Part shown: positions 12,001 through 15,180 of the stretch, piece by piece
Layout of the letters: the number at the start of each line of letters is the position of its first letter
Numbering within the stretch: the first letter of the stretch is position 1
Virus record (IMG/VR): IMGVR_UViG_2563366825_000027
Span: 1 to 15,180 of that record
Source of the DNA: a virus
Lineage: Duplodnaviria > Heunggongvirae > Uroviricota > Caudoviricetes
Reading direction: 5' to 3' (one strand)
DNA: 15,180 nucleotides
Made by a program: the position numbers

Positions 12001-15000
12001 GAAGCCCTGACTGTTACAGCAGTTGGGGCTTCAACTTTTTAGGCTGCGAATAAGACGCTGCACTATTTCTGAATTTAAAGACCTGCCCTCCTCCTTAGCC
12101 TTTTCCTTCAATTTTTCTTTAATCTCTGGCGGGATACGAATCCCTAATGGAGCGATATCTCTAACTTTCATTTCTTTCCCAATTGCTACACCGTGATAAC
12201 TAAATACTACACCGTGCTTATTTAAAGTCAAAGTTTTTTTGCCTACACTGTGTAGCAATGCTACAGCGTGCAGGAGGAAAAATGAAAGGTGCAAGAGATA
12301 TCAGTCCCTTGGGAATTAGGATTCCAGACTATTTAAAGAAACGCATTCAGCAGGAAGCGGATAAAAACGGCAGATCAATGAACTCAGAGATTGTGCTTAT
12401 CCTTCAAAAACATGTTGATAATCTTGATGGCCCTCGCTCACTTGAAGGATTCGCTAACCAAGAAGCTGACAAATTCAAAGAGGCGCTGCTTGAGACGCTA
12501 AAGACCATGTATGGTAAGGATGAAAAATAATGCTGCACACAATTCATTTCTTATGCCCCGTTAACACTGCCACTGTTGGGCAACTTCAGAACCACTGTCT
12601 CACCGCATTATCTCAAGGCGCAACTGAATTAAATATCCATATATCAAGTCAGGGAGGGGAAACTGCCGCTGGCTTTACTGCGTATAACTTTCTTAAGTCA
12701 CTCCCTGTTACCGTTAGAACTCACAACATAAGCAATGTTGAATCCATAGCTAATATCGTTTTCCTGGCTGGCTCAGAACGTTTCGCAAACCCATTATCAA
12801 GATTCCTGTTACATCCTCTATTATGGGTCTTTGCCACCCCAGCCGCCGACCATGCCAGATTGAGAGAGTACGGGAAATGCCTCGATAACGATCTTGATCG
12901 CTTCGTTGAGACGTTCAATATCGACATCGGAACCCATATTAGGTGGGCATCCCTGATAGCAGACTCGACCATTTTGGATGCTAACAAGGCTCTTGAGCAT
13001 GGCATAATTAATTCCATAAAAACTGCAAGGCTGGTATCCAATCAGGCAAACTGGTGGGTTGTTTGATGGGTAAATCATGATTGCTCCTTATAAAAAAACC
13101 ACCTGACGGTGGGCATAATCCATTACTGCGAAAGTTTATTAATGGAAAGGAAACCGCCAAAATTGCCGACATTCCTGCGCAGTTCACACCCGCGCATGCA
13201 CTTGCTGCATCTGTCCTTACGGATATCCGTGGTGGGTTTATCGAACTCATCCGCCACCGCCCCGCCCGTGTAACCACACTCATCAGAGCGGTAGGTCCAC
13301 ATACAGGTGTTCGCCAGCATGATGCGACCGGGAAACAGCGCCCCGTCCGTCTCGGTCGGTGTGGCCAGCACAAACGAGGCCGTCATGGCTGTGAGCTGCG
13401 ACATCTGCTCCACCACCCAGCGGTCCGTCAACTCCTGCTCCGGGTCAGCCTCCGGATTGCCTGCCACAAAATTCACCGCATCCAGAAAACGCGCATACAC
13501 CCGGCGACGAACCACCGTGGCCCCCACCAGGCTCTGCAAATCCTCCGCCATCCCGGTGACCAGCCCGAACAGATTCGACACCGTCAGTGACGGGCGGGCA
13601 CTGCTCCCTTTCCCGTTCATCTCAAAGCCGCTGCCGTCAATCGGGTACGCCTCATACTTCCGCCCCTGCCAGGTGACCGGCTCCCCTTTTTCATTCAGCT
13701 CATTACAGAAAAAATACCGCTCACCGCCCTGTACCGTCAGGTCGATTTCCCAGAGTACCACCCGCGGTGACTGCTCTGATTTAACCGACTCATTCAGGCT
13801 TTCTTCGTTGATCTCCTGCATAAACATCCACCCATAAAAAAGGGGCGCAATGCGCCCCTGATAAAATAGTTCAATTAAAAAATCAAAAACGATGAAGGTA
13901 ATAAAATGAAAATTAAATCAGCTAATAGCTGATCGCAGTGACCAGTGGAAATATAACTTCCACTGATACAGGCCATCTGTGAGGGCAGATGGCCTGTATT
14001 TATTTACCAGTAATCATCAGAACTGATAAGTCATACCAACAGCAACGATATCATCCGTTGCAATGCCCGCATCCCTGGTAAACTTATTCTCATCAACCAG
14101 ATTGATTTTATAATCAACATAGGTGGACATATTTTTATTGAAGTAATATTTCGCACCTACGTCAACATACTTAACCAAATCCTGGTCACCATAGTTTTTA
14201 CCACCTACAATGACATCCTGAGCACGAGACTGCAGGAATGCCAGAGATGGACGCAGACCGAAATCAAACTGATACTGCAGTACCGCTTCAAAGTTTTGCG
14301 CTTTATCTGCAACTCCTTTATCACCAAAGGTCGTCAGATTCTGAGTTTCGGAATATGTTGTAGCCAGGTAAAGGTTGTCAGCATCGTATTTTAGTCCGAC
14401 TCCCCACATCTCAGCGTGTTTACCTTTTGCAACACTACCGGAATCAACAACGATCTGCTTTTCAGTCACTTTACCGGTTAAAGGATCAGTTTGTTCAATC
14501 GTCAGAGTACCATTCAGACCTTTTTCCTGATTATTGGTTCGGTCCGCATTAATATATGCGGCAACGATACCAAAACCTTCATATTCATAACTGGCTGAGA
14601 AACCGTGACCATCACCATTAGCTTTCCGGAGATCACCCCGATCATTTTTACCCTGGTACTGTGCCGCAAAATTCAGGCCATCGACAAGCCCAAAGAAATC
14701 TGTATTACGATAGGTTAATACCCCGGAAGTACGGGCTGTCATGAAGTTATCGGTCTGGGTCCAGCCATCACCGCCAAACTCTGGTAATACGTCAGTATAA
14801 GAACCAACATCGTACGCAATACCATAGTTACGACCATAATCAATGGTGCCAAACTCACCAAACTTCAGACCTGCAAATGCAAGACGGGTTTTATTACCCG
14901 CAGCACCCTCTGATTCAGCTTTATTACCAGAGAACTGATATTCCCACTGACCAAAACCAGTCAACTGGTCATTAATCTGAGTTTCACCTTTAAAGCCCAG

Positions 15001-15180
15001 ACGTGCGTATGTCTTATCTCCATCATCCCCCTTATCACTGGAGAAATAATGGAGTGCAGTTGCACGCCCATACACATCAAGTTTATTGCCATCTTTATTG
15101 TATACTTCTGCAGCCTGCGCCCCCGCTGCAAAAATTACAGCTGCTGCCACAGCTGAAAGTGCCACTGTCATTTTTTTCAT

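Follow-up and report, generated by a model that had tools for sequence, protein, structure and literature searches.

The stretch of viral DNA analysed here (the window, 15,180 nt) carries the distal part of a lambdoid tail operon. It raises the question of why a porin gene, followed by hairpins and a terminator, lies directly upstream of tail gene L, at the place where gene M should abut. The original prediction gave two possible answers: a porin moron is inserted between M and L, or a truncation upstream of L has left the operon incomplete and the prophage defective. All phage genes discussed are encoded on the minus strand, and those that frame the question are the following.

14017-15180, minus strand: porin gene, a complete ORF of 387 aa whose start codon is formed by the final three bases of the window.
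13822-13835, minus strand: L leader with the Shine-Dalgarno-like motif GGGUGGA (13827-13833), which is kept in all alleles; read by comparison with Sakai prophage Sp10.
13123-13821, minus strand: minor tail protein L (TIGR01600 phage_tail_L, 365 bits; Pfam Phage_tail_L), the first tail gene 3' of the cassette.
10262-10999, minus strand: tail gene K.
9684-10364, minus strand: tail gene I.
5874-9341, minus strand: tail gene J.
3891-5393, minus strand: collagen-repeat tail fibre.

The L reading frame opens at 13827. The RefSeq start, which matches the MQ... of lambda, is at 13821, and this is most likely the real start rather than 13827. The genes inserted between L and K had no defence-system match in PADLOC.

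The porin gene is complete and lies on the same strand as L, as had been predicted. Its product matched the entire Pfam Porin_1 profile (1-337/337, E 1.8e-139) and phrog_410 over the full length. It has a signal peptide and the aromatic C-terminus (...YQF) of the general-porin OmpC/OmpF/PhoE family, and its best relatives in the PDB were OmpC, OmpK36, PhoE and OmpF. Since the cut-off of the NCBIfam OmpC subfamily was barely exceeded (496.7 vs 484), the database name 'OmpC' appears to be a loose one. The porin was 68-72% identical to Lc and about 68-74% identical to the Lc/NmpC/OmpD-like group, while the values were 63% for K-12 OmpC, 62.5% for OmpN and 61% for OmpF. The proposed phylogeny, made as a distance tree with no support values, placed the cassette porins in their own clade beside the group with Lc and the chromosomal NmpC/OmpD-like porins, and further from OmpC. 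We also considered an orthologue of E. coli ompC, which was ruled out by the 63% identity, by the tree placement near NmpC/Lc/OmpD-like porins and by the locus within a prophage tail operon. In a scan of one genome per bacterial species, no candidate for a chromosomal source exceeded 64-68% protein identity, and no porin of the cassette type turned up outside the E. coli collection.

The porin differs from the solved OmpC structures by a hypervariable insertion of 20-30 aa at about aa 220-250, where the alignment to these structures splits. This insertion probably corresponds to surface loop L5. Seven alleles that we examined were 84-90% identical to the window protein, and nearly all of their differences, including those in length, fell within the insertion. 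Variation confined in this way would be in keeping with a loop that is exposed and evolves fast.

The window stops at the porin start codon, and the promoter region and M were therefore read from relatives. The locus of E. coli JNEC-KY203 (L001) is 99.4% identical over window positions 12000-15180, and its RefSeq porin start and stop coincide with those described here. Beyond the porin it continues with a spacer of 205 nt and then a complete late region, made up of M, the tape-measure gene, T, G, the major tail subunit, and head, terminase and lysis genes. The gene order H-M-porin-L-K was observed in 8/8 related E. coli loci (L001 and seven others). In every one, M is located 198-235 nt ahead of the porin, and the tape-measure gene precedes M. 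The edges of the insertion are identical in two lineages of the tail module, one with an M of 342 nt and the other with an M of 330 nt, and they stay identical even among alleles that are about 82% identical in DNA.

The porin-free junction of Sakai prophage Sp10 reads TGATG, with the stop codon of M overlapping the start codon of L, which agrees with the predicted normal state. Compared with Sp10, the insert substitutes for the last three codons of M and ends immediately before the L start codon. The Shine-Dalgarno-like motif in the L leader thus appears to take the place of translational coupling to M. The GC content of the spacer is 25%, that of the porin gene 43.6% and that of the 3'UTR 37%, vs 54-59% in tail genes M, H, L, K, I and J. 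The insert therefore has the marks of a moron in the sense of Hendrix/Juhala (PMC3594210): it is extra DNA between genes that are adjacent in a related phage (Sp10), its base composition is divergent and it has its own terminator (13836-13859).

Because eight E. coli genomes show upstream the spacer, head genes and M, H, T, G and V, the last five being the genes to be looked for beyond the window, we read the porin as part of a moron cassette of about 1.58 kb, placed exactly at the M/L junction. A tail operon truncated upstream of L, with the porin as flanking or unrelated DNA of a defective prophage, could be suspected from the window alone, since it ends at the porin start codon and M is outside the view. 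The portal gene of L001 is frameshifted, so single carriers can be defective for other reasons. However, M and the tape-measure gene are in place in 8/8 loci and the edges are the same in both tail-module lineages. The insertion edges, the base composition and the terminator of its own therefore lead us to reject a truncated or defective operon for the relatives, whose tail operon is intact, and we give this explanation almost no credence for the window.

The spacer, read in L001, gave two collinear matches to the K-12 ompC-micF intergenic region. One comprises 16-17 nt identical to the OmpR C1 box of ompC (TTTACATTTTGAAAC) and the other 29 nt with 86% identity near the micF promoter. No similarity was found between the upstream region and the ompN-micC intergenic region. 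The motifs TTTACAT, TTGAAC and AATATTTT are kept upstream of the porin in all alleles. A scan for consensus promoters called none upstream of the porin. The region has a conserved TTGAAC..TATTTT together with the OmpR-box-like motif. The leader of the cassette resembles the lc leader. The porin may be expressed from the cassette's own promoter in an OmpR-dependent manner.

The junction of porin, 3'UTR and L was present in 111/5426 complete E. coli genomes (~2%), in at least five allele classes with 75% to 99.6% identity, and the carriers include strains labelled STEC. The exact porin protein was found on at least 1000 public contigs under the names 'porin OmpC', 'outer membrane porin protein LC' and 'porin from phage origin'. 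Among 50,697 phage records, none had a porin at the M/L junction and no porin was closer than 68.7%. Within these data, no exception was found to the earlier remark that this position is not known for phage porins, and our literature search found no report of a porin between M and L. In the three cases checked, the DLP12 prophage and phages ev207 and PhiR49_1, the porin gene stands between Q and the holin and is read against the direction of late transcription. The 'phylogenetically distinct porin' Ec042-2121, named in the genome paper of EAEC 042, was not found in two 49-kb stretches of EAEC 042.

Such a gene might also be silent or decaying cargo without function. Phage porin genes can be inactivated, and nmpC of K-12 is interrupted by IS5. 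Against this, 7/7 alleles kept an intact reading frame and varied mainly in one surface loop. The regulatory flanks are conserved as well, and the junction is present in all of the 111 genomes mentioned above. We find it very unlikely that the porin is mere cargo.

The porin stop and the L start are separated by 195 nt, which hold three hairpins and then an intrinsic terminator. The elements of this 3'UTR, in the direction of transcription, are the following.

13966-13999, minus strand: hairpin 1, a 14-bp stem with the loop CCCUCA; three compensatory pairs in 6 alleles, 100% of cells paired.
13943-13965, minus strand: hairpin 2, a 10-bp stem; four compensatory pairs, 100% of cells paired.
13916-13934, minus strand: hairpin 3; one compensatory pair, also picked up by the scan for terminator-like sites.
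13890-13915, minus strand: putative seed UAAUUUUCAUUUUAUUACCUUCAUCG, conserved and predicted to be unpaired; taken from the allele alignments and a sub-threshold MicF match.
13859-13889, minus strand: A/U-rich spacer from the seed to the terminator, read from the sequence; unpaired in the centroid structure.
About 13836-13859, minus strand: intrinsic terminator GGGGCGC-AUU-GCGCCCC + U6, called by the scans; stem invariant in all alleles.

The terminator hairpin with a U-run before L was thus recovered where it had been proposed, as a stem-loop of 8 pairs (7 of them G-C) with a U tract. The stem-loop was delimited as 13841-13859 or, more narrowly, as 13842-13858, and the U tract covers 13836-13841. 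Further hairpins had been proposed as well, and they exist, but there are three of them and not two. That these hairpins form an IpeX-like 3'UTR is a point the original prediction did not contain.

The 3'UTR region (195-204 nt) folds at -72 kcal/mol, vs -42.7 +/- 3.7 kcal/mol in shuffles (z = -8), and contains 5 terminator-like sites, vs 1.3 +/- 1.2 in shuffles. Across six distinct alleles, the 38 pairs of the four helices were 99.6% paired with 8 compensatory pairs. When the partner was slid by 1-3 columns as a control, 35-45% were paired and 0-3 compensatory pairs were seen. Hairpin 3 is longer in other alleles, which have an extra inner TGCCA..TGGCA stem. The best-conserved non-coding part is the stretch between hairpin 3 and the terminator that is predicted to be unpaired, and its seed core UUAUUACCUU (13895-13904) is invariant in all alleles. 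The A/U-rich spacer is a possible Hfq-binding region.

To compare this 3'UTR with those of other porins, we used a covariance model (R1) built from cassette UTRs alone and searched it against 575 kb of porin loci. The top matches were the 3'UTRs of lc (PA-2) and nmpC (DLP12), which were matched over the full length (42.2 bits, E 1.4e-6). We take this region to be ipeX, and it was reportedly described under that name by Castillo-Keller, Vuong and Misra in 2006. R1 found no match downstream of the chromosomal OmpD-like porins in the same 575 kb, and gave weak matches on micF genes at about twenty loci (E 0.03-0.9). As in the Lc/NmpC-ipeX module, the cassette has a structured 3'UTR between the stop codon and an intrinsic terminator. 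In the R1 alignment, however, the cassette and ipeX seeds are out of register. With blastn, the cassette 3'UTR gave nothing significant against the lc/nmpC 3'UTR, so that R1 alone, which takes structure into account, picked up the relation. Rfam has no IpeX family and reported no family at threshold in the cassette 3'UTR. The relation to ipeX is one of architecture and a short seed.

MicF and MicC are chromosomal small RNAs which repress ompF and ompC. Both gave sub-threshold Rfam matches, MicF (RF00033) with 26.8-28.3 bits vs a gathering score of 79, with the seed core as the best-supported columns, and MicC (RF00121) with 21.9 bits vs 90. The window-type seed matches micF nt 11-43 at 80% identity across 35 nt, and the other seed type has 88% identity to micC nt 1-17. 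The seed of the window allele is nearer to MicF than to ipeX.

We ranked duplex energies for the seeds over 85 annotated K-12 start regions together with those of ompF, ompC, lc and the cassette porin (n=89). These energies ignore accessibility, and A/U-rich seeds also score strongly on unrelated genes, e.g. ycbV and yjbS. As a control, MicF ranked ompF first. The ipeX seed ranked ompC first with -26.7 kcal/mol (background -10.2 +/- 3.0). For the four cassette alleles, the predicted ranks of ompC were 1, 1, 2 and 4 and those of ompF 2, 2, 4 and 7 (of 89), and the cassette's own start region ranked lower. In silico, the window allele forms a 13-bp duplex of UUAUUACCUUCAU with AUGAGGGUAAUAA of ompF, which is the MicF core site, and so has complementarity to the ompF translation start region as known from the MicF 5' end. 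The commoner allele is predicted to pair across AAAUAAAGG...AUAACAGAGGGUUAA of ompC, a site that is shared with the ipeX prediction and overlaps the MicC site. Despite their differences, the seed stretches of all alleles are predicted to be complementary to the Shine-Dalgarno regions of both ompF and ompC. LamB mRNA (lamB) came first for the window allele and for that of a relative (L007), but with a patchy predicted duplex, and we treat lamB as a lead only.

These predictions have to be weighed against a plain porin moron, in which the 3'UTR hairpins keep 3' exonucleases from degrading the mRNA and serve as an insulator between the porin promoter and the tail genes, and host porin mRNAs are unaffected. 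Stable 3' hairpins and a strong terminator would suffice to explain the co-variation. In addition, the MicF and MicC matches are sub-threshold, and duplex predictions with A/U-rich RNA are noisy. On the other hand, conservation in the UTR is highest in a stretch for which no pairing is predicted, a feature that a stabiliser has no need of, and in every allele this same stretch is predicted to be complementary to the ompF and ompC Shine-Dalgarno regions. The UTR is also similar to the ipeX region, for which a lowering of OmpC and OmpF has been reported (PMC12197685, PMC8065619). We therefore consider the plain moron rather unlikely, but a serious competitor. Because IpeX is stated not to rely solely on complementarity with ompC mRNA (review PMC12197685), base-pairing may not be the mechanism even for IpeX.

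We favour, as the probable reading, a self-contained moron cassette which consists of an AT-rich promoter region, the porin, a structured 3'UTR and a terminator, and which would both supply a porin and repress host porins. Its expression, processing, repressive action and benefit are what we infer from the anatomy described above. In the lysogen, the cassette would be transcribed from its own promoter up to the terminator before L, and the tail genes would stay silent because transcription stops there. The phage porin would be inserted in the outer membrane. The 3'UTR, either within the mRNA or as a fragment processed from it, as reported for IpeX, would base-pair around the ribosome-binding sites of the ompC and ompF mRNAs and so lower the host porins. 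In effect, the surface pores of the cell would be exchanged: phages and colicins that depend on OmpC or OmpF would be shut out, nutrients would enter via the phage porin, and altered permeability may be part of the benefit. During lytic growth, Q-modified polymerase would pass the terminator and L would be translated from its own ribosome-binding site (GGGUGGA).

A further reading, which we put forward tentatively as somewhat short of an even chance, is a 'receptor swap' module. Here a phage porin with a hypervariable loop would be combined with a 3'UTR RNA on the same transcript that silences OmpC and OmpF, and perhaps LamB. The seeds would be retargeted by allele, with the window type mimicking MicF and the commoner type mimicking MicC and IpeX. 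If this is true, phage regulatory RNAs have converged on the host porin-control RNAs or are derived from them.

Nutrients and many antibiotics enter the cell mainly through porins, which also serve as receptors for phages and colicins. If the cassette adds a porin and lowers those of the host, then phage susceptibility, drug permeability and surface antigens would change in about 2% of complete E. coli genomes. To our knowledge, there is only one example of the IpeX mechanism, and it is an old one. The mechanism would be extended to a second, diverged family at a different position of the phage genome, and the natural seed variants of the cassette alleles are material for testing how IpeX-type RNAs work. 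The label 'porin OmpC' in the databases conceals both the phage origin of the gene and its regulatory tail. The gene itself is already in databases, and by its type it groups with phage porin modules such as Lc/NmpC-ipeX and with the tail-operon morons. What is new is the M/L position, the separate porin clade with a variable loop and the ipeX-like 3'UTR with MicF- or MicC-like seeds depending on the allele.

Among known systems, gene 15 of HK97 is a moron in the tail operon with its own promoter and terminator, and it acts in superinfection exclusion (PMC3594210). It differs from the cassette in that its product is a small protein of the inner membrane and its place is between the genes for the tail chaperone and the tape measure. 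The moron reading is also favoured by Gifsy-2, which carries cargo at the same gpM/gpL point of a lambdoid tail operon, a Lom/Ail-like outer-membrane protein (a Lom homologue) and sodCI, and this cargo acts on the cell envelope. Its genes are different from those of the cassette, sodC is on the opposite strand and the cargo is without a known regulatory RNA.

The likeness to MicF and MicC concerns the RNA. The cassette core UUUAUUACCUUCAU is one base off that of MicF, UUUAUUACCGUCAU, with the 13-bp duplex predicted over the ompF Shine-Dalgarno sequence, and other cassette alleles carry GUUAUUACCUUUAUUG, to be compared with GUUAUAUGCCUUUAUUG at the 5' end of MicC. All three RNAs finish in a terminator hairpin with a U tail. 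MicF and MicC, however, are separate genes divergent from ompC or ompN, whereas the cassette element is located in the 3'UTR of a porin on the same strand and, unlike them, has no evident promoter of its own.

The closest parallel is given by lc of phage PA-2 and nmpC of DLP12. The proteins are only 68-72% identical, and the cassette clade has the loop insertion of 20-30 aa. The cassette is located between M and L on the late-operon strand, whereas the lc/nmpC type is located between Q and the holin in antisense. Upstream, the cassette has an ompC-type OmpR box while lc has annotated CRP sites, and the cassette UTR contains about 35 extra nt between the seed and the terminator. Still, both are phage-borne general porins with about 44% GC and share the 5' leader pattern TGACATC...AATAGTTCA...AAGG. 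Their long 3'UTRs are built alike, from three hairpins, a U-rich stretch that is unpaired (CUGUUAU..UUACC.UUUAUU) and an intrinsic terminator. For the ipeX seed as for the cassette seeds, pairing is predicted with the ompC leader around its Shine-Dalgarno sequence.

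The 3'UTR of the lc/nmpC phage porin genes contains the ipeX region, whose product IpeX has been reported to lower OmpC and OmpF. We compared this region with the leader of ompC in the following two loci:

L013 (K-12 nmpC locus) 1366-1515, minus strand: ipeX region, 3'UTR of K-12 nmpC
L002 (locus with the ompC leader) 1751-1795: ompC leader

Positions -32 to -2 of the ompC leader have a predicted complementarity of 9 + 15 bp with the ipeX region, and this stretch includes the Shine-Dalgarno sequence. In the duplex-energy ranking, the predicted ipeX/ompC duplex (-26.7 kcal/mol) took first place among the 89 start regions (85 annotated in K-12, together with ompF, ompC, lc and the cassette porin). 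The original IpeX paper of Castillo-Keller, Vuong and Misra from 2006 reportedly describes no complementarity. According to a review, complementarity is not the sole basis of IpeX action (PMC12197685).

The window holds another insert of ~2.1 kb in the interval between the tail genes L and K, which spans the genes at 11054-13066:

11054-11968, minus strand: Bro-N/P22 antirepressor
12258-12530, plus strand: Arc-like protein, member of a divergent pair
12530-13066, plus strand: ClpP-like protease, the other member of the divergent pair
within the insert: YlcI/YnfO gene

The GC content of this insert is 44-47%, whereas that of the tail genes is ~58%. Its ClpP-like protein is related to head maturation proteases in PHROGs, and PADLOC gave no defence-system match for the insert genes. 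When the window was compared with seven of the loci carrying the porin cassette, K followed directly after L, with nothing inserted, in six of them; the L-K insert was shared by the closest complete relative, JNEC-KY203 (L001). The whole of window 12000-15180 was matched in only 8 of 5426 complete E. coli genomes. In JNEC-KY203 the portal gene (L001 29956-32540) carries a frameshift annotation, and particle production by this prophage may be absent despite the intact tail operon.

The window also encodes other surface and tail proteins:

1542-2816, minus strand: 424-aa protein with YadA-like membrane anchor, a trimeric-autotransporter-type adhesin domain
3891-5393, minus strand: tail fibre protein, with a prophage tail fibre N-terminal domain, then three collagen triple-helix repeat stretches

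The YadA-like anchor protein matches phrog_9547 over its full length. Its gene lies near the prophage end, downstream of the tail fibre genes. This protein may be a further surface-protein moron.

Citrobacter amalonaticus S646 has a porin of 377-387 aa (L050 2971-4134), and the signal peptides of this protein and the cassette porin are closely alike. Immediately upstream of the Citrobacter porin gene is one that encodes a phage tail-tip domain; an SLT transglycosylase gene flanks it on the other side. This porin may be phage-borne, at a third kind of position. The EAEC 042 genome paper names a 'phylogenetically distinct porin', Ec042-2121 (PMC2808357), which could belong to the same clade as the cassette porin; its gene was not found in the two 49-kb stretches of that genome examined.

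In the cassette-carrying EH41 prophage, the antisense RNAs isrK and C4 were both matched with full score (L004 25081-25276, minus strand), adjoining a Rha-family gene. Judged by these matches, the element is a predicted immunity RNA of the P1/P7 type within a lambdoid prophage.
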